A stretch of DNA of 42,502 nucleotides from an uncultured bacterium (GTDB lineage: Bacteria > CAIJMQ01 > JAADFP01 > CAZSGC01). The position numbers and the translations under genes are program-made. The stretch spans positions 30,649 through 73,150 of the forward strand of contig CAZSGC010000001.1 of the NCBI GenBank assembly GCA_964606225.1, written 5' to 3'. Of the stretch, positions 1-30,051 are shown one piece after another. Under the pieces are notes generated by a model that was not told where the DNA came from, searched no databases, and was given only the letters and a program-made list of their open reading frames with translations. Numbering within the stretch: the first letter of the stretch is position 1; each line of letters begins with the position of its first letter.

Positions 1-376
1 CTTCTCTACGGGTCTTCTCTATCTCCAGTACCTGATGATATAAGAACTCTGCTTCTTGGAATCTTTTCTCCCTTAAGGCTCTATCTGCTCTCTTAAGTAA
101 AACTCTTATTCTTTCTTCTCTCTCCTTCTCTCTGTAAAAAGCCACTACCCTAAGGTATCTTTTTGCTAAACGATTTTCCGGGTCAATTTCCAGAACTTTC
201 TTAAATTCTTCCTCTGCTTTAGACCAGTTTTTTAGTCTAAGATACGCCTTTCCTAACTCCAAGTGTTCCCGAATATTTTTCTCTTTCTCCTGAGGAAGTG
301 CTGAATTTAGCCACAGGAAAAAGAAACCCCATATAAGTAAAAATACAAAAGGAAATAGAAAGAGTTTTCTCTTCAC
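1..376 (-). CDS. TPR-repeat protein, N-terminal ~125 codons only (gene runs off the left edge). It lies directly downstream of the pilP-like gene and may be a pilotin-like or secretin-associated component.
   Basis: Absent from the ORF track because no stop lies in the window. The reverse complement reads GGAGG, 6 nt, then GTG(376), followed by VKRKLFLFPFVFLLIWGFFFLWLNSALPQEKEK (hydrophobic signal/anchor). A canonical TPR unit follows: HLELGKAYLRLKNWSKAEEEFKKVLEIDPENRLA. The frame stays open to position 1. Confidence 0.5.
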   Translation of the reverse strand, partial: MKRKLFLFPFVFLLIWGFFFLWLNSALPQEKEKNIREHLELGKAYLRLKNWSKAEEEFKKVLEIDPENRLAKRYLRVVAFYREKEREERIRVLLKRADRALREKRFQEAEFLYHQVLEIEKTRRE

Positions 377-377
377 C

Positions 378-917
378 TTATCCTCCTATTTTAAGTTCAA
401 ATTTAGGCTTACCCTCCTTAAAAAGTATTATGCTGGAAGAGGTAATTTTCTCCACTTTCCATCCCTCTACTACATCTCCCTCCTTAACAAAATAGGTCCT
501 TCCCGTCCTCTTATTCTGGATGGTAGCAATCAGTTCCCCAATCTGCATCAAACCGGTACATACCAGATCCATCCTCTCTTCAGTCTTAGGGGTTTCTCCA
601 GGAGTAGGGGTAACCGTAGGTTCAGGAGGAGTAAAAGGAGGAAGGGGAGCAAAAGGATTACGGGAAAGAATTTCTCGGTAATAGGTAAAAGGACGAGGGG
701 AAAGAAAAGCAAGATAAGTCTCATCTCCTACATTTTTATTTACCGTCTCCGGATCCCATCTTACCTGAGGCTTCAGACCTAACTCTAAAGCGGAGGGGTT
801 AAGAGTCCTTGCCCAGGTATTGTAAAGCCTCCATCCCAATGTCATCCAGCAAAGTAAAATTAACCAGAGAATTACTTTTTCATAATTATCTCTCATCCAT
901 AGAAGAAAAGTTCGCAT
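378..917 (-). CDS. PilP-like pilus assembly protein (membrane-anchored, Pro/Thr linker, C-terminal beta domain)
   Basis: ORF 378..938. The ATG at 917 is preferred over the TTG at 938: it follows the upstream TAA stop by 1 nt, and a GGAG lies upstream. The protein has a TM anchor (VILWLILLCWMTLGW) and a linker PFAPLPPFTPPEPTVTPTPGETP. The C-terminus GRTYFVKEGDVVEGWKVEKITSSSIILFKEG resembles PilP/GspC-HR-type domains. It sits after the pilO-like gene. Confidence 0.6.
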   Translation of the reverse strand: MRTFLLWMRDNYEKVILWLILLCWMTLGWRLYNTWARTLNPSALELGLKPQVRWDPETVNKNVGDETYLAFLSPRPFTYYREILSRNPFAPLPPFTPPEPTVTPTPGETPKTEERMDLVCTGLMQIGELIATIQNKRTGRTYFVKEGDVVEGWKVEKITSSSIILFKEGKPKFELKIGG

Positions 918-918
918 A

Positions 919-1797
919 TTAAATCTTGCTCCACTCAATGTAGGAAAGAGAAAGGGTAACTTTTAGGATTCTTTCTGGAGAAGCAGATTCCTTTTTTTCC
1001 TCCCTATTTATCTCTTCTCTCCTTTCCGGTATTCTTCTTCCCCTCTCTACCTTCATCCTTTCCCTTTCCTCTACCCTCCTCTCTTCTGCTCCAGTAAATT
1101 TTTCTCTCTCTGTACTTTTAGTTGCTTCTTCAGATTCTATCCCTAACCCCTCCACCAGAATAAATCTTTCCTTACTATTCTCTAACTCTAAAAGCAACTT
1201 GGTTAGAGACAATAAATCACAATTGAAAGTTAATGTCAAGGGAGTTTTTTCATAAAGAGAGGAACTTCTCCTTTCTCGCTTTCCACCTTCCTCTCCAAAG
1301 GTAATAGAGGAAATTTCTTTAATGCCCGAATCTATGCATTTCTTTAGCAACCATTCCACCAGATATAATCTCTTAAGAAGCGCAGGTACTTCCTTCTCCT
1401 CAGGTAAAGAGTCAGTTACTCCCAAGTCTTGAGGAATGGTAGCCTGATTAAGAGAAGCGTATCTCTCTAATTCTTCCTGAGTATTGTAGAAGGTCTCTAA
1501 GTAATAGAGGGAAGGATTCTGCTCCGAAGGTATCTCTATCTTAACTTCTCTATAGAGAGCAGACCTTACCTTCTTATACTCCTCTTCTAAAATCTGATTT
1601 CCTCTCTTTAAAGCCTCTATCAGTTGAGGAGAAGGCGGCCCTTCAGGGACTGAATAGTAACTCTTTACTTGTTCCATCTTCTCCTCCAAGGTTTTTTCTA
1701 CCTCTCTCTTCTTAATAAGAAAGGGACGAGCTACCACCAGATAAATTACCAATAAAACTATCACAAATCCAGCAGGAAATAACAATATTTTTCTCAT
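919..1797 (-). CDS. PilO-like (GspM-like) bitopic pilus alignment protein with a charged low-complexity insertion
   Basis: ATG at 1797. A single N-terminal TM (ILLFPAGFVIVLLVIYLVVA) is followed by a coiled-coil-like segment. The gene lies between the pilMN fusion and the pilP-like gene. The family call rests on architecture and synteny, not on a diagnostic motif. Confidence 0.55.
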   Translation of the reverse strand: MRKILLFPAGFVIVLLVIYLVVARPFLIKKREVEKTLEEKMEQVKSYYSVPEGPPSPQLIEALKRGNQILEEEYKKVRSALYREVKIEIPSEQNPSLYYLETFYNTQEELERYASLNQATIPQDLGVTDSLPEEKEVPALLKRLYLVEWLLKKCIDSGIKEISSITFGEEGGKRERRSSSLYEKTPLTLTFNCDLLSLTKLLLELENSKERFILVEGLGIESEEATKSTEREKFTGAEERRVEERERMKVERGRRIPERREEINREEKKESASPERILKVTLSLSYIEWSKI

Positions 1798-3604: not shown

Positions 3605-6600
3605 TTACCTTCCCTCCTTCCAGAACCAGAATCTACGCGGAGGAGAAGGAACTTCTTCCCAGGGAGAAGGTTTACGATATACCCAACTCTGTATGTCTGT
3701 ATCGGACTTGTCAGGTTCTGCAGGATAATAAACTTCCACCAAAAAGGAGTAACTATTGTCGGGTAAAAGTTCTTCGGTAGTATTGTCACCGTAGGTAAGG
3801 GTACCTTCCCATATATTAGGATTGGTGCTAACCTGCCATTTGAAGTCATAGTTGAGAGCAACTTTGCCTTCCGGTTTATATAAATAACATTTATACTCGT
3901 GGGCTCCACTTCCTCCCCAACTTCTCCAAGTAAAGGTTACCACATCTTCCTGAGAAATTCCAGCCGGACCTTCTATAATCTCTACATGAGGTAGGTCACT
4001 CTCTATCCACCAGTAATAGGTATTACCTCCTATACCTCGTGTTTCTTGAGTCTCATAATTCCCTGCCTTATCCATATATCTTACTTTGAAGGCATAGGCT
4101 CTCCCCGGGGTGAGATTGGTGTAAGAAGTAGAGAGGTAACTATCACCCTCTACAAAATCACTCCAACCCAAATCCTTTCCTTCCAGCATCCATCTCACCA
4201 GCCAGGTGTCAGAAAGACTCTCTCCGGTTATTTGATTGGCAGGGTCGTAAGAACTCCAGGTAAAGGAGGCGGAAGTAGAGGAAGAACTGGCAGTGGTTTC
4301 AACTATGGAAGTTACCATAGGGGTAGTATCCACCTGAATCTTTATTCCCGTATCAGAGGTAATCACCTCATTCCCTGCTCGGTCATATATACGAAATCTT
4401 ATACGGTTAAAATCCCGGGATTCCATCTGGAAGAGAGCGGTATCTACCTGCACTACCTCCTCTACATTAACCGCTCCCTCAAAACCAGAAGGTAAGGTTA
4501 TATAATCCTTCTGCCACTCTCCCCAGTAAAATTTTTTGTTGAGGGTATCGTAAAGGTAAAGAGAGTACATGGGAGGGCTATCAGAGAGGGTGGTCTCATT
4601 AAGACCAGAGCAGTCATTAACACTGGCTCCCAGATTTACATCAGGATTTTTGTCTATTACCTTGATTCTCACCCCAGGGGTTCGAGAAACTGTCCAGGTA
4701 TCCTGAGAGTTCTCCACCCAGGTAAAAGCCCGGTTAAGTAAATCAGTAGGGTAATCGTAAACAGGATAGACTTCGGAGTAATAAACTTCCGGAGTTTCTT
4801 CCACCACTACGGGAGGGGCAGTATCTTTCAGGAGAAAGAGGAGAGAAGAATCTCCCCCATCATCCTCAGGGATACTATAAGAAGGAGGAGGAATCTCCTC
4901 ATTACCTGCATTGTCAGTGGCTCTTGCTTCAATGGCGTAGCCACCTTCGGTGGGAGGATAGAAAACATACTGCCACTGGGAGTAATCTCCTCTACCACTG
5001 GTATCCTCCACCAGTTCCCAGGTTCCCCACTCGTATTGACTCTCATTTTCCGGCCAGGCTCCTCCCTGATTACGTCTCCCAGTTCTTATCCTCACCACAT
5101 CGATTCCGGTAGGATAAAGAACGCTATCATAAGCCACACCACTCACTTTTACCGGCAAAGTATTCTGAGCATTGAAGATGTAAACGGTTCTGCCATCTAA
5201 CTGGATAGGGAAAAGACCGGTATCCGGAGTAGAAGAATCCCGAGGCGGGACGTTAATTTCGGTGAAGGGAGGTTCCACATCTACATAAATACTCTGGAAA
5301 TTTATCACCACCTCTTTCAGTACCGGACTTACACTACTCTGGGAAGTCTTAAGGAAAGGACGATACTGGAGATACCGGGAGATAGGATGGACTCTCACTT
5401 CATCAAAGTAAGCCTGGCTACTGGTGTAAAGAGAAAGGTTAGAAGGGGTAAAGGTGGGATTGTTGATACGCCCATACCCCACATCCTGAATATTCACCGT
5501 TATAGCCTCATCTCCCTGAAAACTCCATCTTTTCCAGTTCACAAGATACCTTTCTCCAGAGGTGTAAGTACCCAGGAAGGAAGAATCCTCCACCACTCCA
5601 TCATTGATATACTGAAGATACACTTCTCCATTCTCAAAATAGACCAGATATCCGGTATCTCCAGAAACTTCCTCCAGAGGACCAAAGGTTTGATTGGAGA
5701 TAGCGGATACAGTTTTACCACTTATAGGAGTTACCCAGTGGTAAAGGGAAAAATACTCTTCTATCTCTTTCTGAGAGGTTACACCTGTAGGGGTGGAAGC
5801 GGTAATCTCCAGATGGAGATTTACCTCCTCAATCCCGGAGACCTCACCCCACCTACTCCAGAGACTCCCATCCAGGGTATCATCGTTAAAACTATCCCGC
5901 CACCTCACTATGTACTCCTCCCCTCCTTTCACTCCGTAAGCGTAGGGAGGAGACCACCTTCCATCTATATCTGTATCGGAGAGGGGAGTATCGGAGTCCC
6001 GGGTATATAAGATGATAAATCTCCTCAAAGCATGGGAAGTGATAAGAGGCTCGGAAAGAGCGCCCTGAGAAATCTTCACCAGGTCTATCTTCCCAGAAAA
6101 TCCTTCCGTGCTTCCGCCCAGGAAAAGGGAGGGATTACCCGGGTAAAGGATGTCTCCTTCCGCAAAGGTGTTGGTGTATTTGGGAATACCGTCCACATAA
6201 AGGATTAAATTATTCCCCCCGTAAGTAAAGGCAAGATGGTACCACTCAAAGAAAGAGAAAGCATCGGGATCAGTAGCCGTGTAGGAGCCTGTGGAAGTAT
6301 AAATCTTTACCTGGAAATGACCAGAACTGTCCGTACCCAGCCACCACCCTGAGTTCTGACCATCTCCCATAGAGAGAATACTTTGAGCCGTGGAAGAGAC
6401 TGTGGGATATACCCAGCATTCCACAGTGAGAGTTCTCAAAGCCAGAGAGGAGGAGTAGGGAACTTCCACGTAATCTCCAGAAGAAAAACTTAAAGACCAG
6501 TGAGTAGGATACTCTCCCTCATAGGTCCAGGTGGCTCCCCAAACATTCCCATGATTATCAAAACCTGAGGAATCCAGAGCAGTATCCGCATTCCCCCCCT

Positions 6601-6928
6601 CATCCAGATACCATAGCCCTCGGGTATAGATGTCCTTTTTAACCAAGAAATCCTCACCTTCCCAGGAAATTTTTTCCCAGATGACCGGAACCTGTGCATC
6701 TCTCCAGGAGGAGAAGAGAATTCCCGTATCCGGATAAGAGACTCCATTCCACTCTAAGTAAAGGTCTCCAGGAACGGTATCTCCATCTACGTTTTCTGCC
6801 CACCAGTAGTAACTGGTAGCCTGCCAGAGGAGTTGGGAATCCCCTCCTGACCAGTCAGTTTGTGTCCAGGCGAAGAGAAGTAGAGGAGAGAGAAAAAGAA
6901 GTGTGAGGAAAAATTTACATTTTTTCAT
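3605..6928 (-). CDS. Large secreted LamG (Laminin_G_3 / concanavalin-A-like) plus tandem Ig/Fn3-like repeat protein. It is a candidate pilus-associated adhesin or cargo.
   Basis: Sec-type signal MKKCKFFLTLLFLSPLLLFA|WTQ. The LamG signature spans about aa 105-290 (DSSGFDNHGNVWGA..LSFSSGDYVEVPYSSSLALRTLTVECWVYP..WYHLAFTYGGNNLILYVDGIP). At least three beta-sandwich modules end in D-x-AGN (ATDNAGNEE, IYDRAGNEV, YMDKAGNYE). There is no pilin-like N-terminus. Confidence 0.8.
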   Translation of the reverse strand: MKKCKFFLTLLFLSPLLLFAWTQTDWSGGDSQLLWQATSYYWWAENVDGDTVPGDLYLEWNGVSYPDTGILFSSWRDAQVPVIWEKISWEGEDFLVKKDIYTRGLWYLDEGGNADTALDSSGFDNHGNVWGATWTYEGEYPTHWSLSFSSGDYVEVPYSSSLALRTLTVECWVYPTVSSTAQSILSMGDGQNSGWWLGTDSSGHFQVKIYTSTGSYTATDPDAFSFFEWYHLAFTYGGNNLILYVDGIPKYTNTFAEGDILYPGNPSLFLGGSTEGFSGKIDLVKISQGALSEPLITSHALRRFIILYTRDSDTPLSDTDIDGRWSPPYAYGVKGGEEYIVRWRDSFNDDTLDGSLWSRWGEVSGIEEVNLHLEITASTPTGVTSQKEIEEYFSLYHWVTPISGKTVSAISNQTFGPLEEVSGDTGYLVYFENGEVYLQYINDGVVEDSSFLGTYTSGERYLVNWKRWSFQGDEAITVNIQDVGYGRINNPTFTPSNLSLYTSSQAYFDEVRVHPISRYLQYRPFLKTSQSSVSPVLKEVVINFQSIYVDVEPPFTEINVPPRDSSTPDTGLFPIQLDGRTVYIFNAQNTLPVKVSGVAYDSVLYPTGIDVVRIRTGRRNQGGAWPENESQYEWGTWELVEDTSGRGDYSQWQYVFYPPTEGGYAIEARATDNAGNEEIPPPSYSIPEDDGGDSSLLFLLKDTAPPVVVEETPEVYYSEVYPVYDYPTDLLNRAFTWVENSQDTWTVSRTPGVRIKVIDKNPDVNLGASVNDCSGLNETTLSDSPPMYSLYLYDTLNKKFYWGEWQKDYITLPSGFEGAVNVEEVVQVDTALFQMESRDFNRIRFRIYDRAGNEVITSDTGIKIQVDTTPMVTSIVETTASSSSTSASFTWSSYDPANQITGESLSDTWLVRWMLEGKDLGWSDFVEGDSYLSTSYTNLTPGRAYAFKVRYMDKAGNYETQETRGIGGNTYYWWIESDLPHVEIIEGPAGISQEDVVTFTWRSWGGSGAHEYKCYLYKPEGKVALNYDFKWQVSTNPNIWEGTLTYGDNTTEELLPDNSYSFLVEVYYPAEPDKSDTDIQSWVYRKPSPWEEVPSPPRRFWFWKEGR

Positions 6929-6955
6929 CTTTTTCGCCTTCCCTTTAACAAAAAG

Positions 6956-6971
6956 GGCAAATTATTTGCCA
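6956..6971 (-). promoter_or_regulatory. Sigma-54 (-24/-12) promoter match upstream of the LamG gene; the same sequence can also be read as a weak hairpin
   Basis: The minus strand reads TGGCAA-ATAAT-TTGCC against the consensus TGGCAC-N5-TTGCA, with exact GG/GC spacing. The predicted +1 is near 6945, giving a 17-nt leader AAGGGAAGGCGAAAAAG before ATG(6928). Confidence 0.5.
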
Positions 6972-6986
6972 ACCTTCTCAATATTC

Positions 6987-9884
6987 TCACCTCTCGTAAA
7001 CGCAATCAATCCGGTATTCTCCCAGGATTTCGTCTGCTCCCTCATCATATTTTCCGTCTCCATCCGTATCCCTCACACTTCTACCTGTAACTTTTATCCG
7101 GAAGAGATTAGAGCGGACAGTAACCAGGTTGGAAAGGTGAGAGAAAGTCTGGCAGGCTTTGCTTAAATCCCCCCAGTAATTCTCCAAAACATAGAGCAAT
7201 TTCCCAGTACTATCCAGGGGACCTTGAGTATCTATATAATTCCTTATATACTGAGCCAGAGAACTGTCTACGTTCGGAAGAGCCTCCAGGACAACTTTAT
7301 CCGCAGTATTAATATTTATCCTCCCGTAGACACGGGGTAGAGGGGCTAATACCACTCCATCAAAGTAAGCGTCGGAAGCACCAGGGGGCTTTCTTACCGT
7401 TATCTGAAGATATACCTCTCCTTCCTCTCTACTTTCGTTGGGGTCGGCAATCCAGACCTCTCCGTAATACCCCATTCCATCGGGTCCTGGATTTACCAGT
7501 ATTTCCGGATAATCCTTTACCCAGGTATCCACCTTCACCAGAAGGGGAACATCTTCCTTACCCAGGATATAAAGGGAGTAAAGGGCGGTATCTGGAGAGA
7601 TTCTCTCTGAAAAACCCCATCCCCATGTCCCTGCACTTTCAGAGTTAGTGTAGTAATAGTCGGTAAGGAAAGGAGGAGAGGCAGGATAGGAATCCCCCCA
7701 TCCATTATCGTAATAACTGGAATATTCTGCCTCCAGTCTCTGGCAGGTTACGGTGAATCTATCCGCTATGCGAACCAGCAGGAGGTCTTTCTGAGAGGGG
7801 TCTGTTTCATCTGTAAGCACTTCCTCTATCCTCTTCCAGGAGTCATTTTTCCCTATGGCTCCTTTTACTTTATATAACTCCCCCACGGAGGCAAAGGGGC
7901 GGTTTTTTACGATTATTTTGTCTAAATCCACAGAATTTACCCCTGTATTTTGTTGACCCGGTGTCCCTTGAGGCTGAATCCCCCTATCCTCATCCTCTAC
8001 TCCGCTCAATAGTCTATTTCTCCAGTTCTCTACGGGGTCAGGGAGAGTTGGGTCTTTCTTCTCTAAGGCAGTGAAGAGGATAACCGAATCCCCTGCATCA
8101 CTCTCCTTAGGGAAGAACCAGGCTCTACATACCACTCTCCCTTCCTCATCCCGAACAATTACCGTATCTCCTTTATCCGTAGCATCCTGTGGAGGAGAGA
8201 CAGAGTCCCATCTATTAGAGGAAAAATCCAAGGCATGGTCTCCCACTCCTCCCCATTCCAAGGATACTAAAGGAGTATCTTCCTTCGGAGTATCCCCCCA
8301 CAGTCCCGTATTATCTCCCCAGCCTGATTCAAAGGAAGTCTGGTCATTATCCCTTCTTTCCGGAGAAGAGTTATCCTTGCGGTCCACCAGAAGGAGATAA
8401 CTTCTTGCAGGAAAGGTAGTTCCCAGAGGGATAATTCCCCGGGATACCGGACCACTTTCTCCCACCACCTCCACCGTCCAGAGACTTAAGTCAATATCCT
8501 CCTCACTTAAGTTTAAAAGTTCTATATACTGGGACTGCTGGGAGAGGATGATAAAGAAAAAGGAGGCAGGGATTCCATCGTTTACATCCTGTAAGGTGAG
8601 GGAAAGTTGTCCAGTAGTGATGTCTACATTTCCCTTATCCTCGAGGTCTATAGCATAAGGAGGGGTGGAAGAGGGGGTAAAGGAACCCAGGAAATTGCCG
8701 TTTACGGTTACATTCACCTCTCCCAGACCACTGGGGTGACAGTATATCCTCAGATAGTACTTGCCATTATTAATATTTCCCCAGGTCCAGTTAGCAGAAT
8801 CTCCCGTATTATTGGAGTAAATCTCTCCCATCGGAGGACCCCACCCATTATCGTAAATACTGGCTCTCACCCCTCTAAACTTCCCCCAGGTCCTGGGCAT
8901 TACCTCATTTATCTGAACATCCTCCACACCGTATATATCTTCTCCGGTATCCGGATTTATAAAGTGGGTGGCGTAGTGGTTTCTATCCCGGTAATCGGCA
9001 ATGTTAGCAGAGAGTTGAAGAGCAGTATCGGGATGAATACCTTCCTGAACCAGGACGGTATCCACCACTACGGGTTCTGCCAGATTTAAGTTAATACGGT
9101 TTAAACCAGAATCATCCATATCCAGGTCAAAGGAGTAGAGGGTTATATAGGGTTGTATCTGGCTAAAAATATCCTCTCCCACAGCCTTCTTCACCTCATC
9201 CAGGCTCAAGAAAGGAGTATCGGAGTTCACCTCACCTGCAGACGGAGGATAGGGACTCCATACTACCAGTTCATCCGGCTCGTCAAAACCCTCACCCGGT
9301 TCATCAATAGAGTCATCTCCATCATTATCTATCCCATCATTCTCCAGGAGGACATTATCTCTATCATCATCGTAATTCTCTTCTCCAGGTCCAGGTCCCT
9401 CCCGGTAATAGATAAGATTATTTGCCACGGTATCGGGAGAAGGAATTCCCAGAGCAGTTAAAAAATCGACTAAACTTATCTCAAAAGTAGTCCATCCTTC
9501 ATTCTGCCTGTCTCCAGCAATGTTTAAGTTAATCTTCCCTGCTTCGTCTTCTATTTTAATCTTATAGGCTCCCACCAGATTTCCATTATCATCTTTTACA
9601 TCTTCCCAGTCTTCTGCCTGATAGATTTCATCTAACCACTCATCTCCAGGACCATCGTATTTGTTATCTTCTAAGTCCTTCTCCAAAGCGCTAATAGCTA
9701 AGTTTACCCCTGCCTGAGCAATGGAGGAAGCCTTTACCTCTCCTAAGTAATTGAAGGAAGCCTCCTCCTCCATCCTCATCTGATAGGAGAAGGAAGCGGC
9801 TAAAGCAGAGAGGATAGCCATTATGGATATGGCTATTATCAGAGCCATGCCCCTTTTATCCTCTAAGCAAAGAATTCTTTTCAT
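6987..9884 (-). CDS. Giant GspK/PilX-like minor pseudopilin (965 aa) with large insertions
   Basis: The N-terminus KRGMALIIAISIMAILSALAASF is a GspK-type hydrophobic segment without Glu5. The motif YKIKIEDEAGKINLN is present, along with two iNxN-type helix-hairpin units (LNRINLNLAEP..ANIADYRD and GRININTADKVVLEALPNVDSSLAQYIRNY). The C-terminal TVRSNLFRIKVTG is also GspK-like. The start ATG overlaps the upstream stop (ATGA). Confidence 0.75.
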   Translation of the reverse strand: MKRILCLEDKRGMALIIAISIMAILSALAASFSYQMRMEEEASFNYLGEVKASSIAQAGVNLAISALEKDLEDNKYDGPGDEWLDEIYQAEDWEDVKDDNGNLVGAYKIKIEDEAGKINLNIAGDRQNEGWTTFEISLVDFLTALGIPSPDTVANNLIYYREGPGPGEENYDDDRDNVLLENDGIDNDGDDSIDEPGEGFDEPDELVVWSPYPPSAGEVNSDTPFLSLDEVKKAVGEDIFSQIQPYITLYSFDLDMDDSGLNRINLNLAEPVVVDTVLVQEGIHPDTALQLSANIADYRDRNHYATHFINPDTGEDIYGVEDVQINEVMPRTWGKFRGVRASIYDNGWGPPMGEIYSNNTGDSANWTWGNINNGKYYLRIYCHPSGLGEVNVTVNGNFLGSFTPSSTPPYAIDLEDKGNVDITTGQLSLTLQDVNDGIPASFFFIILSQQSQYIELLNLSEEDIDLSLWTVEVVGESGPVSRGIIPLGTTFPARSYLLLVDRKDNSSPERRDNDQTSFESGWGDNTGLWGDTPKEDTPLVSLEWGGVGDHALDFSSNRWDSVSPPQDATDKGDTVIVRDEEGRVVCRAWFFPKESDAGDSVILFTALEKKDPTLPDPVENWRNRLLSGVEDEDRGIQPQGTPGQQNTGVNSVDLDKIIVKNRPFASVGELYKVKGAIGKNDSWKRIEEVLTDETDPSQKDLLLVRIADRFTVTCQRLEAEYSSYYDNGWGDSYPASPPFLTDYYYTNSESAGTWGWGFSERISPDTALYSLYILGKEDVPLLVKVDTWVKDYPEILVNPGPDGMGYYGEVWIADPNESREEGEVYLQITVRKPPGASDAYFDGVVLAPLPRVYGRININTADKVVLEALPNVDSSLAQYIRNYIDTQGPLDSTGKLLYVLENYWGDLSKACQTFSHLSNLVTVRSNLFRIKVTGRSVRDTDGDGKYDEGADEILGEYRIDCVYER

Positions 9885-10609
9885 CTTAAATAAACCACCA
9901 TTTCCTGTTTTATCTCCCCTTTACCTTTCCCCTCTCCGTATTCTGCAGTGATAGAAATTTCCACTTTTGTGGGAAGCCGGTATCTTTTGGAGTCAGTATC
10001 TGCTTCTCCCCAACTTTCATATTCACTCTCCCCTTCATAAAACCTAACCCTAAAATCCGTTATATGAAGAGCAAGTTCATAATTTCCCCATACCGGAATA
10101 GTGGAGTGAAAAGGTCCACTGGGTTCAAATCCTCTATCAGGGGTGGATGGAGAAGGATAATTGGGAAGAAGGGGAGAGGGAGAATCTCTCTCTGCCCGGT
10201 AAATAAGGTTTCTCTTCCTTCCCCCGGACCAGTAAATGCTCTTATAATGGCAGTAGATTATCTGCTTTCTACCCTTCTCTTCATCGGGAACAACAAACTC
10301 CATATAGGAGTACTCTTTTCCCTGATAGGTAGTTTTCCCTCCTACAAAGAATACATCTCCTCTTCTAAAAACTTGAGGGTCTAAGGCATTCTTTAAATCT
10401 TTCCTCAGATAATCCAGAGCAGCCCGTGTGTTCACATATACCTGAGCAAGATTTATCCCCTTCCGGGAGGAGAGAAGGCTTCCCTGAAATATGAGGTAGA
10501 AACTACCTCCAATAATACTCAGGATAGCCACGGTTACCATCATCTCCACCAGAGTAAATCCCTTCCCAGAAGGAATTTTTCTAAGGCAGAACATCTCCAT
10601 AGTCCTCAT
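9881..10609 (-). CDS. Minor pilin with a prepilin-type N-terminal cleavage/methylation motif (GspJ/PilW-like by position)
   Basis: The N-terminus reads KIPSGKG|FTLVEMMVTVAILSIIGG. At 242 aa it precedes the GspK-like gene with a 4-nt overlap. The true start may be one of the internal Met codons at 10600 or 10594. Confidence 0.6.
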   Translation of the reverse strand: MRTMEMFCLRKIPSGKGFTLVEMMVTVAILSIIGGSFYLIFQGSLLSSRKGINLAQVYVNTRAALDYLRKDLKNALDPQVFRRGDVFFVGGKTTYQGKEYSYMEFVVPDEEKGRKQIIYCHYKSIYWSGGRKRNLIYRAERDSPSPLLPNYPSPSTPDRGFEPSGPFHSTIPVWGNYELALHITDFRVRFYEGESEYESWGEADTDSKRYRLPTKVEISITAEYGEGKGKGEIKQEMVVYLR

Positions 10610-11057
10610 AAAAGGGGTTGGAAATATAACTTACTATCACATCTGAACGCTCCCTCTCTCCTACCGTCCAGGTTACCTTTAAAAACACCTTCTGGAGAAC
10701 ATCCGCAGGTTTTTGGGGGTCATCTTCCAGTTTTAGTTCTGCACTAACTTCTCCTGAGGAGAGATAAAGAGAATAGGCACCATGGTATTTCTTCCAAAGT
10801 TCATAGTATCCAACACCATTATAGTTAGGATTCACATTCCCATACTCATCTATATCTCCCGGGTCATATATGAAAACTGCATATCTTAATTTATTGAGAG
10901 CATCACTAACTACTGTTCCCACCTTACTGAATTCTGCGGCTCTCTCTGAAGACCTTAAACCCATAGGGAAGAGATGAGCAATAGCCAGAATCCCCACCGA
11001 GAGTATAACCAAAGATATTACCACTTCCAGGAGTGTTAGCCCTCTTTCATTCCTCAA
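10581..11057 (-). CDS. Minor pilin, prepilin-type N-terminus (GspI/PilV-like by position and size)
   Basis: The N-terminus reads MRNERG|LTLLEVVISLVILSVGILAIA. The protein is 158 aa and overlaps both neighbouring genes. Confidence 0.6.
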   Translation of the reverse strand: MRNERGLTLLEVVISLVILSVGILAIAHLFPMGLRSSERAAEFSKVGTVVSDALNKLRYAVFIYDPGDIDEYGNVNPNYNGVGYYELWKKYHGAYSLYLSSGEVSAELKLEDDPQKPADVLQKVFLKVTWTVGERERSDVIVSYISNPFYEDYGDVLP

Positions 11058-11607
11058 TTACTACCCCCCGAAATTCTTTAATTCTAACCCTCCCTGTGGA
11101 ATGGAGCACTTTTATCTGGGCAGTGTATCCCTTGGAAAGGTCCTTTAATACAATGATGGCGTTATTTCTCGCCTCCCCTTTTCGGTTAAACTCCACCACA
11201 TAAAGTTGAGAATTATAAGTGCTTTCTCCAGGCTTGGCCAGACCATTTCTGGTATCCAATTTGGACTCCGGGCTGGAGGTATCTATAATTATGCGGGGAG
11301 GGAGTCTCTTCCATCCTCCGATACTTCCCTCCGCAATATTGTAAACCTCCACTGCTGACCAGAGAGCCTGGTAATCAGTATAGAATACTGCCATATTGTA
11401 GAACTCCTCGTCTGGAGGGGTGGGTTTAGTTATGGCTGCCTCCCGGGCACTTCTTAAGGCAGACATAACATCATAACATCCCTGGCGGAGTCGGGAAGTT
11501 ATGAAGAAATTCCTGAAGGTGGGGAGAGAGGCTATTACCAGAATGGAGAGAATAGCCACCACCACCATTATCTCTATTAAAGTAAATCCTCTCCTTAAAA
11601 CTCTCAT
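11047..11607 (-). CDS. Minor pilin, prepilin-type N-terminus (GspH/FimU-like by position)
   Basis: The N-terminus reads MRVLRRG|FTLIEIMVVVAILSILV. The protein is 186 aa and is the first gene of the H-I-J-K-type series. Confidence 0.6.
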   Translation of the reverse strand: MRVLRRGFTLIEIMVVVAILSILVIASLPTFRNFFITSRLRQGCYDVMSALRSAREAAITKPTPPDEEFYNMAVFYTDYQALWSAVEVYNIAEGSIGGWKRLPPRIIIDTSSPESKLDTRNGLAKPGESTYNSQLYVVEFNRKGEARNNAIIVLKDLSKGYTAQIKVLHSTGRVRIKEFRGVVIEE

Positions 11608-11609
11608 AA

Positions 11610-12113
11610 TCAGTAATACTGCTCCCAGGATTTATTCACATCCCAGTTGTTAATATCGTCTTTGTTGGTAGAAGAGTTTCCTGTATCTCTGTCTTTTCCT
11701 TTAGAGTAAATATAATAGTCTAAGTCTGGTATATCCGTAATGGGTATACCCGTCTCATTACTCAGATTATTTTTTCTGTTTGCTCCCCCAAAGAACCTGT
11801 AGGGATTCCCCCAAGGGTCGTTTCCAATTCCTTTTATATAAGGACCAGACCAGTTCCCTCCCTGGTCCTGAGTTAAGGCTGTCTCCACCACAGATATATC
11901 ACCATTCACATCCCCAAAGTATCCACCCATATCGTGTTCATACATGGAGATGGCGGTCTCCAGAGCAGCAATCTCTGCCTCTACTCGAGCCATCTTTGCC
12001 CGGTCAATTCTGCGGGCTAAATTGGGAAGGAGAATTCCCGCCAGAAGTATAATTATCCCCACCACCACCATAAGTTCAGTAAGGGTAAAACCTTTTTTGT
12101 TTATCCCCTTCAT
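11610..12113 (-). CDS. GspG/PulG-type (pseudo)pilin, candidate major subunit 2
   Basis: The N-terminus reads MKGINKKG|FTLTELMVVVGIIILLAGILLPNLARRIDRAKMARVEAEIAALETAISMYEHD, and later DPWGNPY. This is the typical GspG N-terminal helix and core. A GGAGG lies upstream of the ATG. Confidence 0.8.
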   Translation of the reverse strand: MKGINKKGFTLTELMVVVGIIILLAGILLPNLARRIDRAKMARVEAEIAALETAISMYEHDMGGYFGDVNGDISVVETALTQDQGGNWSGPYIKGIGNDPWGNPYRFFGGANRKNNLSNETGIPITDIPDLDYYIYSKGKDRDTGNSSTNKDDINNWDVNKSWEQYY

Positions 12114-12127: not shown

Positions 12128-12505
12128 CTAAAATTTAATAGTCTCCGAATACTTAACTTTCCCCGAATAATCGGTAGCCTGAATGACATAATAGTTGGAA
12201 TAAAGAGAGTATATATACTCACCTTTCCACGGGGAGGGGGGAATTTCTCTACTTAAGTAAGGATGCTCTCCTGAAGTGAGGTAAGAGAGAGAGGGAGGAA
12301 AAACTTCATTATCTATCTTATACAAGGTAAGGGAACGGATAAGGATCTCAATATCCGCCTTCGCCTTAGCCAGTTTGGCTTTCTCCATCTGTTTAAGAAA
12401 ATTAGGAAGCATTATACCAGCCAGAAGAATTATTATGGAGATAACCACCATTAACTCTATAAGGGTAAATCCCTTTTCTCTTTTCTCACTCTTAACTTTC
12501 ATCAT
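12128..12505 (-). CDS. GspG-type (pseudo)pilin, candidate major subunit 1 (start revised from 12529)
   Basis: The N-terminus reads MMKVKSEKREKG|FTLIELMVVISIIILLAGIMLPNFLKQMEKAKLAKAKADIEIL. The tracked start at 12529 abuts the -12 promoter element. AGGAGGG immediately precedes ATGATG at 12505/12502. Confidence 0.75.
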   Translation of the reverse strand: MMKVKSEKREKGFTLIELMVVISIIILLAGIMLPNFLKQMEKAKLAKAKADIEILIRSLTLYKIDNEVFPPSLSYLTSGEHPYLSREIPPSPWKGEYIYSLYSNYYVIQATDYSGKVKYSETIKF

Positions 12506-12529
12506 CCCTCCTCTTTCCTTTATAAACAC

Positions 12530-12545
12530 TGCAATTTTTGTTCCG
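12530..12545 (-). promoter_or_regulatory. Sigma-54 (-24/-12) promoter match for the pilin / minor-pilin operon
   Basis: The minus strand reads CGGAAC-AAAAA-TTGCA, with GG and GC at consensus spacing. The predicted +1 is near 12519, giving the leader AGGAAAGAGGAGGG before ATG(12505). It lies directly downstream of a sigma-54-dependent regulator/kinase pair. Confidence 0.55.
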
Positions 12546-12610
12546 GACTCTGATAAACATTTGGTGATGGTAGATAGAGAATTCTTTCCTTCATGACTGT
12601 GATATATACA

Positions 12611-13672
12611 TCACACTTTGGCGGGTAAAATCACCTCAAAAGTGGTCCCTTTACCCACCTCACTGCTAACTCTTATATCTCCTTTAAACCTCTTTATCAG
12701 AGCATAACTGATAGCCAGTCCCAAGCCAAATCCTTTTTCTTTAGTGGTAAAGAAAGGGTCAAAGATAAATTTAAGGTTTTCTTGAGGTATCCCAGGACCG
12801 GTATCCTGAAAGTAGAGAGAAACTCTCCGCTCGTCCTTTCTTCCCCAGATACGGATTTCCCCTTCTTCCATAGCCTCTAAGGCATTGTTAATTATATTGA
12901 GGAACACCTCCCTTAACCTCTCCTTATTTCCAGAGACGGGAGGTAAATCCGAAGATAAGTTATTTTCCACTCTCACTTTCTCTAACTTGCCCTCTTCCTC
13001 AAGACCTTTTAGAATCTCTCCCACCAGAGTAACCGCATCCACCCATTCTACTGGAATTTCCTGGGAAGTCTTGGAGTATTCCAGAAGGGAGGTGGCAATT
13101 TCGTTAATTCGGGCTACCTCTCTCTCAATCTGCTCCAGTTGTTCTATAACCTTTTCTCTCCCTATCTGGGAAGAAGTCCCTTCTAAAGAATTGCGAATAA
13201 GATAGGAGGAAGTCCTTATGATGGAGAGAGGATTCCTTATCTCATGCACCACTCCTGCTGCCATCTTAGCCAGAGAAGCAAGTTTTTCCTGCTCTATGAG
13301 TTCCATCTGGAGAGAGAGAAGTTCAGACCTAATTTTTCTTAATTCCTCATTGCGAATCCTCAGTTCTTCCTCTAACCTGCGGTTTAACTGAATAATCTCT
13401 CTCTGAGCAGTGAGTAAGGAGGAGGCTACCTCTTCACCTTTAAAGGAAAGGGGAGAGGTACTTCTCAAAAACAAAGTGCGGGATACTCTGGTAAAAGTGA
13501 AGAGCAAAAGGGAGAGAAAGAAACCCAGAAAGAAAAATTCCATACTCCAGAAGAGATTCCTGTAAGGTGGCGGAAGTCTGATAAGAAGAGGGAAAGGAGA
13601 AAGGAGTAGAAGCAAAAGAAGGAGAAATATCAGAAAGTAAAGAAGTTCTCTCCTCTCACTTTTTTCCGACAT
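12611..13672 (-). CDS. Sensor histidine kinase (PilS-like by context): two N-terminal TM segments, coiled coil, HisKA, HATPase_c
   Basis: The H-box is AAGVVHEIRNPLS. The N-box and G-boxes are LNIINNALEAM, FQDTGPGIP and GFGLGLAISY. The gene overlaps the upstream regulator gene by 17 nt. Confidence 0.85.
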   Translation of the reverse strand: MSEKSERRELLYFLIFLLLLLLLLSPFPLLIRLPPPYRNLFWSMEFFFLGFFLSLLLFTFTRVSRTLFLRSTSPLSFKGEEVASSLLTAQREIIQLNRRLEEELRIRNEELRKIRSELLSLQMELIEQEKLASLAKMAAGVVHEIRNPLSIIRTSSYLIRNSLEGTSSQIGREKVIEQLEQIEREVARINEIATSLLEYSKTSQEIPVEWVDAVTLVGEILKGLEEEGKLEKVRVENNLSSDLPPVSGNKERLREVFLNIINNALEAMEEGEIRIWGRKDERRVSLYFQDTGPGIPQENLKFIFDPFFTTKEKGFGLGLAISYALIKRFKGDIRVSSEVGKGTTFEVILPAKV

Positions 13673-15038
13673 CCCTGACTTCCTCAGGATGAATATGATA
13701 AATTCTCATCTTCTCATAAAAGTGTCGGCGAGAAATTCCGGCTTTCTGGCTGGCTTTACTAACATTACCTCTGGTTTCCTTAAGTAGCCTTAATATATAC
13801 TCTCTCTCCGTTCTCTTTCTTACCTCCTCCAAAGTCCCACGGAGATTTTCCTCCCCAGATACCCGATAACCTCTTATCCTCTCCGGAAGGTCCTCCACAT
13901 CAATCACTCTCTCCTCCGCAAGTACAATACATCCCCTCACCACATTCTCCAATTCCCGAACATTTCCAGGCCAGTCGTAACTCTCCAAGTATTTCATAGC
14001 CTGACGGGAAAAGGTTTTTCTCATAGAAGCATCTTTACTCTGGTATTTGTTAAGAAAATGCTCTACCAGAAGGAGAATATCTTCTTTCCTCTCCCTTAAA
14101 GGGGGCAAAGTAATGGAAACAGCGTTTAGACGATAGAAGAGGTCTTCCCGGAATCTCCCCTCTTTCATTTCTTTCTCTAAATCTTTGTTGGTGGCAGAGA
14201 CAATCCTCACATTAACCCGGATGGGCTCGGTACCACCTACTTTGTAAAATTCTCCCTCCTGGAGGAACCTTAAGATTTTCATCTGGACAACAGGAGAGAG
14301 GTCTCCTACTTCATCCAGAAATACCGTCCCTCCATCCGCCACCTCTAATAGACCCTTTTTCCTCTCCATAGCCCCGGTGAAGGCTCCCTTTTCATGTCCG
14401 AATAATTCACTCTCCAGAAGTGTCTCCGGTAGGGCACCACAGTTTACGGTTAGAAACCGTTTTTCTCTTCTGGGGCTTCTTCTGTGTATAGCCCGGGCTA
14501 CCAGTTCTTTTCCTGTACCACTTTCCCCTATCAGCAATACGGAGACATCACTTTTGGCTACTTTCTGTATAAACTCATAAACTTTCTTCATTTTTTCACT
14601 CAACCCTACCAGTTCTTCAAAGCCTCTCTCCTTCTCCAGTTCTTCCTTAAGAAGAGAGACATCTTCCTTAAGTCTTTCATGCTCCAAGGCTCTTTCTATG
14701 GAAATTATCACCTCTTCCGGATTAAAGGGTTTGAGAATATAATCGTAGGCTCCCAAGCGAAGAGCCTGAATGGCGGTCTCCATACTACCGTAAGCAGTTA
14801 TTATGATAAAGGGAATTCTCCATCCTTCCTGACGAAGTTTCTCCAGGAATTTAGTGCCTTCCATATCCGGGAGTTTGAGGTCACTCAGCACCAGATGGGG
14901 AGAAACCTTACGGATTTCTTTCCAAGCAGAGTTAGCCTTATCAAAGGGATAAACCTTGTATCCTTTAGATTCCAGAAGGATGGATAGATTTCTGCTCAGT
15001 ACTTTATCATCTTCCAGGAGGAGGATTCTATACTTCAT
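13656..15038 (-). CDS. Sigma-54-dependent response regulator (NtrC family, PilR-like by context): REC, AAA+ and Fis-type HTH domains
   Basis: REC motifs are LLLEDD and SDLKLPDMEG. Walker A is GESGTGKELVARAIH, the sigma-54 contact loop is GAFTGA, and the C-terminal HTH is GNVSKASQKAGISRRHFYEKM. ATG at 15038 is preferred; the tracked start at 15041 is the adjacent in-frame TTG. Confidence 0.9.
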   Translation of the reverse strand: MKYRILLLEDDKVLSRNLSILLESKGYKVYPFDKANSAWKEIRKVSPHLVLSDLKLPDMEGTKFLEKLRQEGWRIPFIIITAYGSMETAIQALRLGAYDYILKPFNPEEVIISIERALEHERLKEDVSLLKEELEKERGFEELVGLSEKMKKVYEFIQKVAKSDVSVLLIGESGTGKELVARAIHRRSPRREKRFLTVNCGALPETLLESELFGHEKGAFTGAMERKKGLLEVADGGTVFLDEVGDLSPVVQMKILRFLQEGEFYKVGGTEPIRVNVRIVSATNKDLEKEMKEGRFREDLFYRLNAVSITLPPLRERKEDILLLVEHFLNKYQSKDASMRKTFSRQAMKYLESYDWPGNVRELENVVRGCIVLAEERVIDVEDLPERIRGYRVSGEENLRGTLEEVRKRTEREYILRLLKETRGNVSKASQKAGISRRHFYEKMRIYHIHPEEVRDVGKK

Positions 15039-15046
15039 CAATCTTA

Positions 15047-15095: not shown

Positions 15096-16355
15096 TTAAT
15101 GAATCATGGTGGCGATTCTTATCAAAGGAAGGAAAAGCGAAATTACAATAAAGCCCACTATCACACCCATAAAAACAATCAGCAGAGGCTCCAGAATAGA
15201 GGCTAATCCCTCCACAGCGGTATCCACTTCCTCATCATAAGTATCTGCTACTTTAATAAGCATAGTGTCCAAGGCTCCCGTCTCTTCTCCTACATCCACC
15301 ATGTTCACCACCAGGGGAGGAAATACCTTGGCTTCCTCTAAGGGTTTGGCTATACTTTCTCCCTCTCGAATAGAATCATGAACTCTTACCATAGCCCGGG
15401 AGATTACTTCATTACCCGATGTTTCCTTAACAATAGCCAGAGCCTGTAAGATAGGAACTCCACTATTAATCAATGTCCCCAGAGTCCGTGTAAATCTGGC
15501 AATAGCACTTTTGAGAAATAGAGGGCCAAAGATAAAGAGTTTAAGTTTTACAAAATCTATTAAGTATCTACCTTTCTGAGTACGGTAGATGAGTTTGAAA
15601 GCCACGAAGAGGAAAATTAAGGCAGCAATTCCATAATACCACCTGGTCTTAACCAAATCTGAGGCAGCGATAAGGATTCGGGTAGGAAGAGGAAGGTTTG
15701 CCCCCACTCCTCCAAATTCCTCAAACATTTTCTTGAATATAGGAATAATATAGGTAATTATGAAGGTCACAATACCGGAGGCTACTACTGCTACCACCAC
15801 CGGATATATCATGGCTCCTTTAATCTTCCTTCTTAAGGAGGCTTCCTTCTCCATAAACTCAGCAATTCGGGAAAGCACTACTTCCAGAACACCTCCCACC
15901 TCTCCAGCCTTTACCATATTTATATAAAGTTTAGAGAAGGTCTCAGGATGCTTGGCTAAAGCCTCAGAAAAAGTACTACCTCCTTCTATATCTTCTATTA
16001 AATCGGTAATGATATTCTTTAAAGGTCCTGGTTTAGCCTGCTCCCGGAGTACATTCAAACTCCTCACCAAAGGCAATCCAGCATCAATAAGAGTAGCCAG
16101 TTGCCTGGTAAATTCAGTTAACTCTTTAGTCTTTACCCGGGTTGTAAGACCGGGTATCTTTATCTCCATCTGGAGGCTTAAACCCTTAGCCTCCTTTTTC
16201 TTCCCTGCTACAGGAACTCTCTGTTCTTTGATTCGGGTGGGGAAGTAACCCATCTCTCTTATCTGAGAGGCAGCCAGATTTACATTATCTGCTTCTATAG
16301 TGCCCTTAACCTCTTTACCCTGATTGTTCAGTGCCACGTAAGTATAAACGGGCAT
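15096..16355 (-). CDS. pilC: Type IV pilus / T2SS inner-membrane platform protein PilC/GspF
   Basis: The 419-aa protein has duplicated GspF-type repeats (LTEFTRQLATLIDAGLPLVRSL and IARFTRTLGTLINSGVPILQAL) and three TM segments. GGTGAGGAG lies upstream of the ATG. Confidence 0.9.
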   Translation of the reverse strand: MPVYTYVALNNQGKEVKGTIEADNVNLAASQIREMGYFPTRIKEQRVPVAGKKKEAKGLSLQMEIKIPGLTTRVKTKELTEFTRQLATLIDAGLPLVRSLNVLREQAKPGPLKNIITDLIEDIEGGSTFSEALAKHPETFSKLYINMVKAGEVGGVLEVVLSRIAEFMEKEASLRRKIKGAMIYPVVVAVVASGIVTFIITYIIPIFKKMFEEFGGVGANLPLPTRILIAASDLVKTRWYYGIAALIFLFVAFKLIYRTQKGRYLIDFVKLKLFIFGPLFLKSAIARFTRTLGTLINSGVPILQALAIVKETSGNEVISRAMVRVHDSIREGESIAKPLEEAKVFPPLVVNMVDVGEETGALDTMLIKVADTYDEEVDTAVEGLASILEPLLIVFMGVIVGFIVISLFLPLIRIATMIH

Positions 16356-26884: not shown

Positions 26885-26897
26885 CAAATTTTGTTTT

Positions 26898-26913
26898 TGC
26901 AACTTATATGCCA
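26898..26913 (-). promoter_or_regulatory. Sigma-54 (-24/-12) promoter match immediately upstream of lpxD
   Basis: The minus strand reads TGGCAT-ATAAG-TTGCA against the consensus TGGCAC-N5-TTGCA. The predicted +1 is near 26887, only about 3 nt before ATG(26884). No Shine-Dalgarno is present. Confidence 0.55.
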
Positions 26914-26995
26914 AAGTCTCTAACCCTCCCTTCTTCAGGCTTTTCAGTCTAAAAACCAGGATAAAATGTAGAATTTTTTCCACAAAAGTGTGGTA

Positions 26996-28357: not shown

Positions 28358-28359
28358 TT

Positions 28360-30033: not shown

Positions 30034-30042
30034 TATGTTGTA

Positions 30043-30051
30043 ATTATACCA
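30043..30051 (-). promoter_or_regulatory. Extended -10 promoter element for the kinase/regulator operon, predicted to be leaderless
   Basis: The minus strand reads TGGTATAAT (TGn plus TATAAT, 30051..30043), 9 nt, then GTG(30033). The -35 region is poor (AAGAAT), which is consistent with extended -10 usage. Confidence 0.5.

Follow-up and report, generated by a model that had tools for sequence, protein, structure and literature searches.

A secreted LamG and Ig/FN3-module protein in the PilY1 position of a type IVa pilus locus from an uncultured bacterium

A 42,502-nucleotide stretch of contig CAZSGC010000001.1 from an uncultured bacterium (hereafter the window) contains a type IVa pilus (T4aP)-type operon in which the PilY1 position, between the gene for a giant GspK-like minor pilin (hereafter the K-like pilin) and the pilMN gene, is held by a gene for a secreted protein unrelated to PilY1, as a first-pass annotation of this DNA had proposed. 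For T4aP minor pilins, PilY1 is regarded as an almost universal non-pilin partner, with roles in priming, adhesion and surface sensing. The protein found here, which we call the window protein, consists instead of a Laminin_G_3 (LamG) jelly roll, a second jelly roll and a stalk of immunoglobulin-like (Ig) and fibronectin type III-like (FN3) modules. Our preferred reading, which we hold with middling confidence, is that it is a Sec-exported, non-pilin accessory adhesin of a retractile T4aP that fills the role of PilY1 without homology to it and stays stably associated with the tip or the pilus.

What the analysis shows is the make-up of a soluble, all-beta protein with a Sec signal, the conserved pairing of its gene with that of the K-like pilin, the conserved sigma-54 elements, and a variable head joined to a conserved stalk and termini. 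In the mechanism that we infer (docking on the K-like pilin, display at the tip, lectin activity and dependence on PilR), the gene would have its own sigma-54 promoter and be expressed in concert with the major pilin gene, probably under the control of the PilS/PilR-like pair that this operon encodes. The product would be exported by Sec, its signal peptide would be cut between LFA and W, and it would dock in the periplasm on a priming or tip complex built around the K-like pilin, whose gene lies just upstream. Candidate docking parts are the N-terminal peptide WTQTDWSGGDSQ, the ~420-residue Ig/FN3 stalk and the C-terminal tail. Pilus extension would carry the protein through the secretin, and the variable head (LamG plus CBM66-like) would bind a glycan or surface ligand at the tip. 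The system would then be a non-pilin partner of the type IV pilus (T4P) tip complex built from different parts and, if the reading is true, a lineage with an unrelated lectin/Ig protein in the place of PilY1 would imply that the role of tip adhesin was taken up at least twice. In the paper collection searched, none dealt with LamG together with the type IV pilus and minor pilins.

Domain architecture and export signal

A search of 5.8 billion proteins returned only three close full-length homologs, at 47-52% identity, and since these exist the open reading frame (ORF) is a real gene. The protein begins with a type I (Sec) signal peptide, MKKCKFFLTLLFLSPLLLFA, which has n-, h- and c-regions, is followed by WTQTDW in the mature protein and is the sole hydrophobic segment of the chain (Kyte-Doolittle maximum at aa 4-24). 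A type I signal on a soluble precursor is also what characterizes proteins of the PilY1 type. The context of the cleavage site is kept in 15 family members. As the first-pass annotation had quoted, the mature N-terminus is rich in tryptophan, with five in aa 21-46 and 4.2% over the whole protein. The G-F/M-x-x-x-E prepilin motif was not found on reading the sequence of the window protein, and a hidden Markov model (HMM) scan gave no N_methyl or TIGR02532 match to it, while all five neighbouring pilins match. These results agree with the first-pass annotation, which had described a cleavable Sec signal and an N-terminus unlike that of a pilin; its other descriptive points, on the domains and the C-terminus, were confirmed as well.

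The LamG domain is the most clearly defined part of the head. Pfam Laminin_G_3 matches aa 149-294 (E 1.5e-24; 87.3 bits against a cutoff of 27.6 bits), and a family profile compared with the PDB stretches the match to about aa 107-301 (4qvs, 5hon and pappalysin). The jelly roll had been placed at nt ~6059-6616, and the profile agrees, giving nt 6026-6610. This domain is also the confident part of the AlphaFold2 (AF2) model, with a predicted local distance difference test score (pLDDT) of ~90, and its best superposition in Foldseek is on domain 4 of AbnA (5hon; TM 0.76, root-mean-square deviation 3.6 A). At the domain level, the window protein belongs to the LamG/ConA-like superfamily.

The second jelly roll, which had been suspected from the sequence, is supported by a match of the family profile to the Bacillus subtilis levanase chains 4azz and 4b1l (E 2e-5, at aa 378-511), which we take to be the CBM66 module, and by PF06439 (ConA-like fold), which matches five of 18 family members; the window protein on its own has no Pfam match there. 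AF2 places beta strands in this region at pLDDT 50-70. By its Laminin_G_3 score and its TM value the window protein resembles LamG/ConA-like jelly rolls, and by the levanase match of the family profile it may also resemble CBM66/DUF1080 jelly rolls, but it differs from the carbohydrate-binding members of these groups in having no attached catalytic domain, and such folds also mediate protein-protein binding. Only binding-type modules were recognized in it, and no enzyme or toxin domain was found. Both jelly rolls are flanked by segments (aa 60-106, DTGILFSSWRDAQVPVIWEKISW; aa 302-335, FIILYTRDSDT...WSPPY; aa 506-545, PISRYLQYRPFLKTSQSSVSPVLKEVVINF) that, on reading the sequence and its conservation, resemble split strands of one beta-sandwich seen in many large surface proteins; LamG and the CBM66-like domain may each have been inserted into that single sandwich.

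Downstream of the head, the stalk comprises four Ig/FN3-like modules (Table 1), three of which end in the D-x-AGN motif, in line with the at least three originally recognized; the protein holds exactly three such motifs, at aa 672, 849 and 953. Several of the segments best conserved between the two clades described below lie in module 2. Module 3 is matched by Pfam Y_Y_Y (E 8e-8, aa 909-961), weakly by fn3, and by the FnIII domain of PDB 1k85 (aa 924-965), and module 4 is found also as the repeat unit of giant Ig-repeat proteins. The mean pLDDT of the AF2 model was 35 with an alignment of four sequences and 49 with 18, the gain being confined to LamG and the last Ig module. The assignment of the stalk fold rests on the HMM matches, because the model is poor outside LamG.

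The domain that defines PilY1 was not detected. Pfam and NCBIfam searches gave no match to PilY1/Neisseria_PilC, vWA, propeller or pilin families in the window protein or any of 18 relatives; PF05567, specifically, matched neither the protein, nor its sub-regions at E <= 1, nor the relatives. No PilY1 or PilC chain was listed in the PDB sequence and profile searches, and the top 50 Foldseek hits were all LamG-type folds and included no propeller, although the AF2 model of the C-terminal region used for this comparison is of low confidence. A regular-expression scan of the protein for the calcium motif Dx[DN]xDGxxD was negative. The first-pass annotation had likewise recognized no propeller signature and no vWA motif. 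Since the defining domain was tested for and not found, the window protein falls outside the PilY1 family. No PilY1-family gene was found anywhere in the 42.5-kb window.

A small family with variable heads and conserved termini

The family to which the window protein belongs is small and new, and it is divided into two clades. In addition to the three close homologs, two more loci were recovered from genome contigs, one of them a Caldisericota metagenome-assembled genome (MAG). An exhaustive HMM search with the non-LamG part gave 572 matches, nearly all of which were FN3/Ig-module repeats in giant proteins; a handful have the whole architecture of the window protein. Clade 2 (P0070, P0095 and P0174-P0184; 1364-2046 aa) was found by a full-length profile search, whereas a profile of the ~420-aa stalk returned only proteins under ~800 aa. 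A metagenome scan with the stalk alignment used a very degenerate pattern and gave three weak Ig-like loci (L006-L008), which were not used. The two clades share 22-29% identity over the last 430 aa and 27% on average over all aligned columns.

The heads vary across this family, which holds one to three or more LamG domains: members of the window clade have one, those of clade 2 have two or three, sometimes with DUF2341, and the head of P0031 is a different jelly roll. The second jelly roll, the ~420-aa C-terminal stalk, the tail and the mature N-terminus are constant. PilY1 is built comparably: behind its type I signal, the adhesive N-terminus varies, whereas the C-terminal domain, which makes contact with minor pilins, is conserved (PMC7541494, PMC8833165). 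The window protein shares with PilY1 and Neisseria PilC the type I signal, the lack of a pilin helix, large size, a gene located right after that of a PilX/GspK-type minor pilin, and a poorly conserved, putatively adhesive N-terminal part on a conserved C-terminal part. It differs from PilY1 in that its C-terminal part is a chain of Ig/FN3-like modules in which no PF05567, beta-propeller or vWA domain was found, and in that the Dx[DN]xDGxxD calcium motif occurs here in the K-like pilin rather than in the non-pilin protein.

Lectin modules at a T4P tip have a precedent in Streptococcus sanguinis PilC, in which a ConA-like lectin and an Ig module form a proven glycan-binding adhesin (PMC9934059). 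The window protein would share tip presentation of such modules with modular minor pilins, including S. sanguinis PilC and CofB with its H-type lectin. In those proteins, however, module and pilin moiety form a single chain that carries a class III signal, whereas the window protein is a separate polypeptide with a class I signal.

Both ends of the mature protein are conserved between the clades. The best-conserved 14-mer, FAWTQTDWSGGDSQ, belongs to the mature N-terminus; it shows 75% identity against the 27% mean and was found among 291 fetched proteins in family members only, always right after the signal peptide. AF2 models this near-invariant N-terminal peptide (WTQTDWSGGDSQ) at low pLDDT. 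At the other end, the pattern P-x-x-P-x-[KR]-[FY]-W...E-x-x, set at the terminal carboxylate, recurs in each of the three subtypes, reading PPRRFWFWEEG in clade 1, DPVKYWREESE in clade 2 and KPIKFWREMTE in P0031; the window protein itself ends in RRFWFWKEGR. No known C-terminal sorting domain (PEP-CTERM, LPXTG, GlyGly-CTERM or T9SS CTD) was matched in NCBIfam at E <= 0.01, there is no hydrophobic or transmembrane segment near the C-terminus, and no lipobox was found. The two conserved termini match no known sorting signal, as had been noted for the C-terminus of the window protein.

TcpF of the Vibrio cholerae TCP and CofJ of the enterotoxigenic Escherichia coli pilus CFA/III are operon-encoded, Sec-dependent exoproteins of type IVb (T4b) systems whose disordered mature N-terminal peptide binds the tip minor pilin and doubles as an export signal (PMC10120004, PMC6048534). 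The window protein resembles them in being encoded in a pilus operon, in carrying a Sec signal and in not being a pilin, and its mature N-terminal peptide, by far the best-conserved segment, is a candidate for a like role. It differs in that its machine is type IVa (T4a)-like, with PilT and PilMNOP, rather than T4b, and in being three to six times larger, with lectin and Ig modules; binding to the tip pilin would apply here by analogy. It is not a homolog of TcpF or CofJ: no sequence similarity to either was detected, and neither chain was listed in the PDB sequence and profile searches with the window protein or the family. Because of this precedent, tip adhesin and secretion substrate may be two outcomes of one mechanism.

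We think it unlikely that the window protein is a dedicated exoprotein, exported through the secretin by a machine working in type II secretion system (T2SS) mode or in a T4P-dependent manner like TcpF, and acting as a released or surface-sticking soluble lectin or bridging factor. A Sec signal with no membrane anchor fits such a protein, as does the set of GspG/H/I/J/K-like pseudopilins, in which one GspG-like protein scores above the TIGR01710 cutoff and which is served by two ATPases above the GspE cutoff. Family members encoded away from pilus loci, with the same termini and a sigma-54 promoter, look moreover like a set of substrates sharing one signal, and TcpF and CofJ establish that a terminal peptide can be an export signal read by the tip pilin. 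The PilT-family ATPase and PilM/N/O/P point instead to a true retractile T4aP, and the modules are of the binding type only. The exoprotein explanation also overlaps our preferred one, in which docking on the tip pilin is the same and only retention on the tip differs.

T2SS substrates may be encoded beside the secretion genes, as is pullulanase PulA, and we know of no conserved linear terminal signal among them. The window protein shares with PulA and similar substrates its Sec dependence and the location of its gene beside a GspG-K-like pseudopilin set; it differs from them in that the machine has PilT and PilMNOP and in that the family has two conserved termini.

A bolder proposal, which we regard as doubtful, is that the family is the first T4a counterpart of TcpF and CofJ, a group of sigma-54-controlled lectin cargo or adhesin paralogs, encoded partly within the pilus operon and partly outside it, whose shared mature N-terminal peptide (WTQTDWSGGDSQ) and C-terminal tail would serve as a transferable address recognized by the giant GspK-like tip pilin. 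If so, a single pilus could present or export one head in exchange for another, and these lineages could do without PilY1. With two conserved termini and a conserved partner pilin, the question of recognition is directly testable, and the natural variation of the heads, set against a docking module that stays constant, would allow the study of tip recognition and passage through the secretin. The finding also offers a proposed function for large hypothetical LamG proteins of uncultivated bacteria, in Caldisericota-related and unclassified MAGs.

Linkage to the K-like pilin and sigma-54 elements

Linkage was sampled in about 15 loci, and the family gene directly follows a K-like gene in eight distinct loci that include both clades. 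In clade 1 the K-like gene lies upstream in the window and in L001, L003, L004 and L005, with a 23S_rRNA_IVP/bAvd-like (IVP) gene between the two in L001, L004 and L005; the ORF upstream in L003 ends in GEYQLNTIYER, like the K-like pilin of the window. The family gene is followed by pilMN in L001, L002 and L004. In clade 2, P0179 (L011 and L012) follows pilC, a sigma-54 regulator, a kinase, and genes for G, G, H, I and J pilins and a 989-aa K-like protein, and P0180 and P0181 follow a K-like gene in L016 and L018; L019 and L020 are duplicate contigs with only partial upstream ORFs that end at the same place. The clade-2 K-like proteins align over their full length with that of the window at 29-30% identity (E 7e-93 and 2e-103). 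The K-like gene and the family gene have therefore remained neighbours even though each has diverged to less than 30% identity.

Five clade-2 paralogs are found elsewhere. P0070, P0174, P0175, P0177 and P0183 have no pilus gene within 10 kb, and their neighbourhood (L009, L010, L013, L014 and L015, with the family gene at about position 10001) consists of DUF1015, GT1, Bac_transf, the family gene, an NAD epimerase, oppB/C and PilZ, with HicAB also present in some, which hints at polysaccharide synthesis or protein glycosylation, and at cyclic di-GMP (c-di-GMP). By stalk identity these unlinked paralogs form their own group, apart from the pilus-linked P0179-P0182, and one metagenome sample yielded both the unlinked P0177 and the linked P0179. 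Downstream of P0095 the context is of a third kind, its upstream region being missing. Stand-alone paralogs also occur for PilY1/PilC, as with Neisseria pilC1 and pilC2.

These paralogs bear on a low-probability alternative in which the protein is a lectin adhesin of the cell surface or envelope, belongs to a sigma-54 attachment regulon, reaches the surface by another route and never touches the pilus, so that its adjacency to the K-like gene reflects shared regulation. That they lie beside genes for glycosyltransferases, sugar transferases and epimerases suggests a function connected with the envelope or with polysaccharide, the sigma-54 promoter is retained at a distance from pilus genes too, and giant LamG/DUF2341 surface proteins are common in uncultivated lineages. 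The K-like adjacency, however, persists across clades at ~27% identity, which co-regulation alone can hardly explain for a gene with its own promoter, and no PEP-CTERM, LPXTG or T9SS CTD signal, lipobox or transmembrane segment that would anchor such a protein or export it by another route was found. We give almost no weight to a further alternative, that the protein is a periplasmic or outer-membrane structural accessory, such as a secretin-associated or alignment component, and not an adhesin. The position of the gene between the pilin genes and pilMNOP and the conserved C-terminal module would suit such a part, but variation in the number and type of lectin-like head domains is usual in adhesins rather than in core components of a machine, paralogs occur outside pilus loci, and the family gene of L011 is not followed by pilMNOP.

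The first-pass annotation had also assigned the gene its own sigma-54 promoter. A -24/-12-type element, TTGGCAAATAATTTGCC, with the core TGGCAA-ATAAT-TTGC at 6957-6971 (-), occupies part of the 58 nt that precede the start codon, and although this match alone is at chance level (12 matches in the window at up to two mismatches, 12.3 expected), the promoter is supported by conservation in relatives. L001, L003, L004 and L005 carry the non-palindromic sequence TTGGCAT-N5-TTGT at the same position, and in clade 2 the perfect consensus TTGGCACGAAAGTTGCT precedes the family gene in L009, L010, L011, L013 and L015, sitting in L011 just after the K-like stop codon. In 314 kb of fetched DNA the strict sigma-54 motif was found ten times where 0.5 would be expected, at eight distinct sites, as L012 duplicates L011: six copies are before family genes, one before the IVP and family gene pair of L014, two before the major pilin gene of L011/L012, and one at position 26913 of the window. 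A sigma-54-like GG-N10-GC element, CCGGAACAAAAATTGCA, is located before the first pilin gene of the window, and the orthologous pilin gene of L011 has the perfect TGGCAT-N5-TTGCT. Most family members, pilus-linked or not, thus have an upstream sigma-54 -24/-12 element, and the presence of such elements before both family and major pilin genes would therefore tie the unlinked paralogs to the pilin regulon.

Two other interpretations of these intergenic regions were considered. A terminator, as suggested by the palindrome GGCAAATAATTTGCC and T-run at 6956-6970, was rejected as the main interpretation, as the homologous regions keep TGGCA-N6-TTG and are non-palindromic. Also rejected was translational coupling, suggested by an 11-nt overlap in L011 between the K-like gene and the start called for the family gene: the conserved signal peptide begins ~50 codons further in, and the sigma-54 motif lies between.

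Several points weigh against the reading of the protein as a pilus-tip adhesin. The five paralogs in glycosyltransferase context indicate that the family needs no physical linkage to pilus genes. The -12 element of the four clade-1 loci is TTGT and not TTGC, and in L016 and L018, where the family gene starts 8 nt past the K-like stop, there is no own promoter. A secretion mode is plausible, given the GspG/H/I/J/K-like character of the pilins and GspE scores above the cutoff for the two assembly ATPases. An unusual fold may be hidden in the poorly modelled stalk, and, as the sequence covers 42.5 kb of the genome, a gene for a true PilY1 may lie outside it.

The proposal of the first-pass annotation that the protein is a non-homologous replacement for PilY1 therefore stands in part. 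Adjacency in eight loci, a PilY1-like layout and the sigma-54 elements speak for it, and the unlinked paralog group speaks against it. The same annotation had held that homologs scattered through genomes with no pilus genes nearby would make the linkage coincidental; such scatter was found for the five paralogs, and not for the pilus-linked members in eight loci.

Two kinds of sequence recur around family genes. Genes for 112-124-aa IVP proteins, members of a four-helix-bundle family, lie directly upstream of family members in pilus-linked and glycosyltransferase-context loci alike (Table 1); the window contains none. The bAvd-like genes prompted a check for a diversity-generating retroelement, which was rejected: no reverse transcriptase was listed among the called genes, and no template/variable repeats were found in the window, L001, L013 or L014. 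Short repeated intergenic elements flank clade-2 family genes in L014 (6549-6647 and 14178-14276), L015 (~9890-9955 and ~10030-10100) and L009 (~9870-9910 and ~10085-10125). The L014 element is a GC-rich 99-nt repeat (89% identity), and L015 and L011 carry an element of ~65 nt with the inverted repeat CCCCCTT(C/T)GAAGGGGG on either side of the promoter. The gene caller took these intergenic elements as N-terminal extensions of P0177, P0179 and P0184.

The surrounding locus

Table 1. Features of the window and of related loci. Coordinates are those of the window unless a locus is named.
Feature	Coordinates	Strand	Evidence or remark
Gene for the window protein (secreted; LamG, CBM66-like, Ig/FN3 stalk)	3605..6928	-	ORF, ATG start, 1107 aa
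Type I (Sec) signal peptide, aa 1-20	6869..6928	-	predicted cleavage between LFA and W
Conserved mature N-terminal peptide WTQTDWSGGDSQLLW, aa 21-35; candidate docking/export peptide	6824..6868	-	cross-clade conservation
LamG/ConA-like jelly roll, aa ~107-301	6026..6610	-	Pfam Laminin_G_3, PDB profile matches, AF2/Foldseek
Second jelly roll, CBM66/DUF1080-like, aa ~342-515	5384..5905	-	family profile against PDB, PF06439 in relatives
Ig-like module 1, aa ~548-680, ends ATDNAGNEE	4889..5287	-	Big_3_2 and Big_13 matches; D-x-AGN at aa 672
Stalk module 2, aa ~693-860, conserved; KDTAPP, DKNPD, NDCSGLNE, YDRAGNE	4349..4852	-	D-x-AGN at aa 849
FN3/Y_Y_Y-type Ig-like module 3, aa ~868-975	4004..4327	-	Pfam and PDB; D-x-AGN at aa 953
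Ig/FN3-like module 4, aa ~978-1087	3668..3997	-	AF2 all beta, pLDDT ~70; FN3con PDB match at aa 994-1072
Conserved C-terminal tail PSPPRRFWFWKEGR, aa 1094-1107	3608..3649	-	pattern kept across subtypes
Sigma-54-type -24/-12 element TTGGCAAATAATTTGCC	6955..6971	-	~30-45 nt before ATG, in 58-nt gap
Sigma-54-like GG-N10-GC element CCGGAACAAAAATTGCA before first pilin gene	12531..12547	-	L011 ortholog has perfect TGGCAT-N5-TTGCT
ORF with signal-like N-terminus and TPR-like repeats, runs off left window edge	1-377	-	candidate pilotin or secretin N-terminus
PilP/GspC-like	378-938	-	Pfam/NCBIfam
PilO/GspM-like	919-1797	-	weak resemblance to Amuc_1100 and GspM
PilM-PilN fusion, 581 aa	1801-3546	-	resembles Akkermansia Amuc_1101 family
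Giant GspK-like minor pilin, 965 aa; proposed docking partner	6987..9884	-	NCBIfam GspK E 5e-20; HHH_3 and LTD matches
J-like pilin	9881-10609	-	N_methyl/T2SSG/TIGR matches across pilin block
I/PilV-like pilin	10581-11057	-	N_methyl/T2SSG/TIGR matches across pilin block
H-like pilin	11047-11607	-	N_methyl/T2SSG/TIGR matches across pilin block
GspG-like pilins, two	11610-12113 and 12128-12529 (real start about 12504)	-	HMM matches; start codon read
PilS-like histidine kinase	12611-13672	-	Pfam, NCBIfam
PilR-like sigma-54-dependent response regulator	13656-15041	-	Pfam, NCBIfam
PilC	15096-16355	-	Pfam, NCBIfam
PilB/GspE-like with MshEN c-di-GMP motif	16378-18096	-	GspE and PilB models
PilT	18093-19157	-	pilT_fam 459.7 bits against 319.1-bit cutoff
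Second PilB/GspE-like	19159-20877	-	GspE and PilB models
23S_rRNA_IVP/bAvd-like genes	L001 3453-3818, 7139-7477; L004 817-1191; L005 3327-3701; L013 9543-9890; L014 9402-9758		

All genes between 378 and 20877 are on the same strand and together form a T4aP-type locus (Table 1). The K-like pilin combines a GspK-like N-terminal part with a lamin-tail-domain (LTD) insert at aa 451-585 and an HHH motif at aa 855-899, and its EF-hand-like site DTDGDGKYD is at aa 939. A similarity between its C-terminus and Verru_Chthon cassette protein A (TIGR02600) suggests that the 'cassette' proteins of the Planctomycetes-Verrucomicrobia-Chlamydiae (PVC) group are giant GspK-type pilins. Both PilB/GspE-type assembly ATPases carry the MshEN motif and score just below the PilB cutoff, and two such paralogs around one PilT fit a machine with two extension modes.

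The ORF at the left edge could encode a pilotin (PilF/Tgl-like) or the N-terminus of a secretin. Genes for LpxD and KdsB in the window point to a diderm organism. A near-perfect sigma-54 motif, TGGCATATAAGTTGCA, is located at 26899-26913 (-), at the start of the lpxD ORF (25874-26983) and directly downstream of a second pair of sigma-54 response regulator and histidine kinase genes (26996-30558); lpxD may start further in and be sigma-54 controlled.

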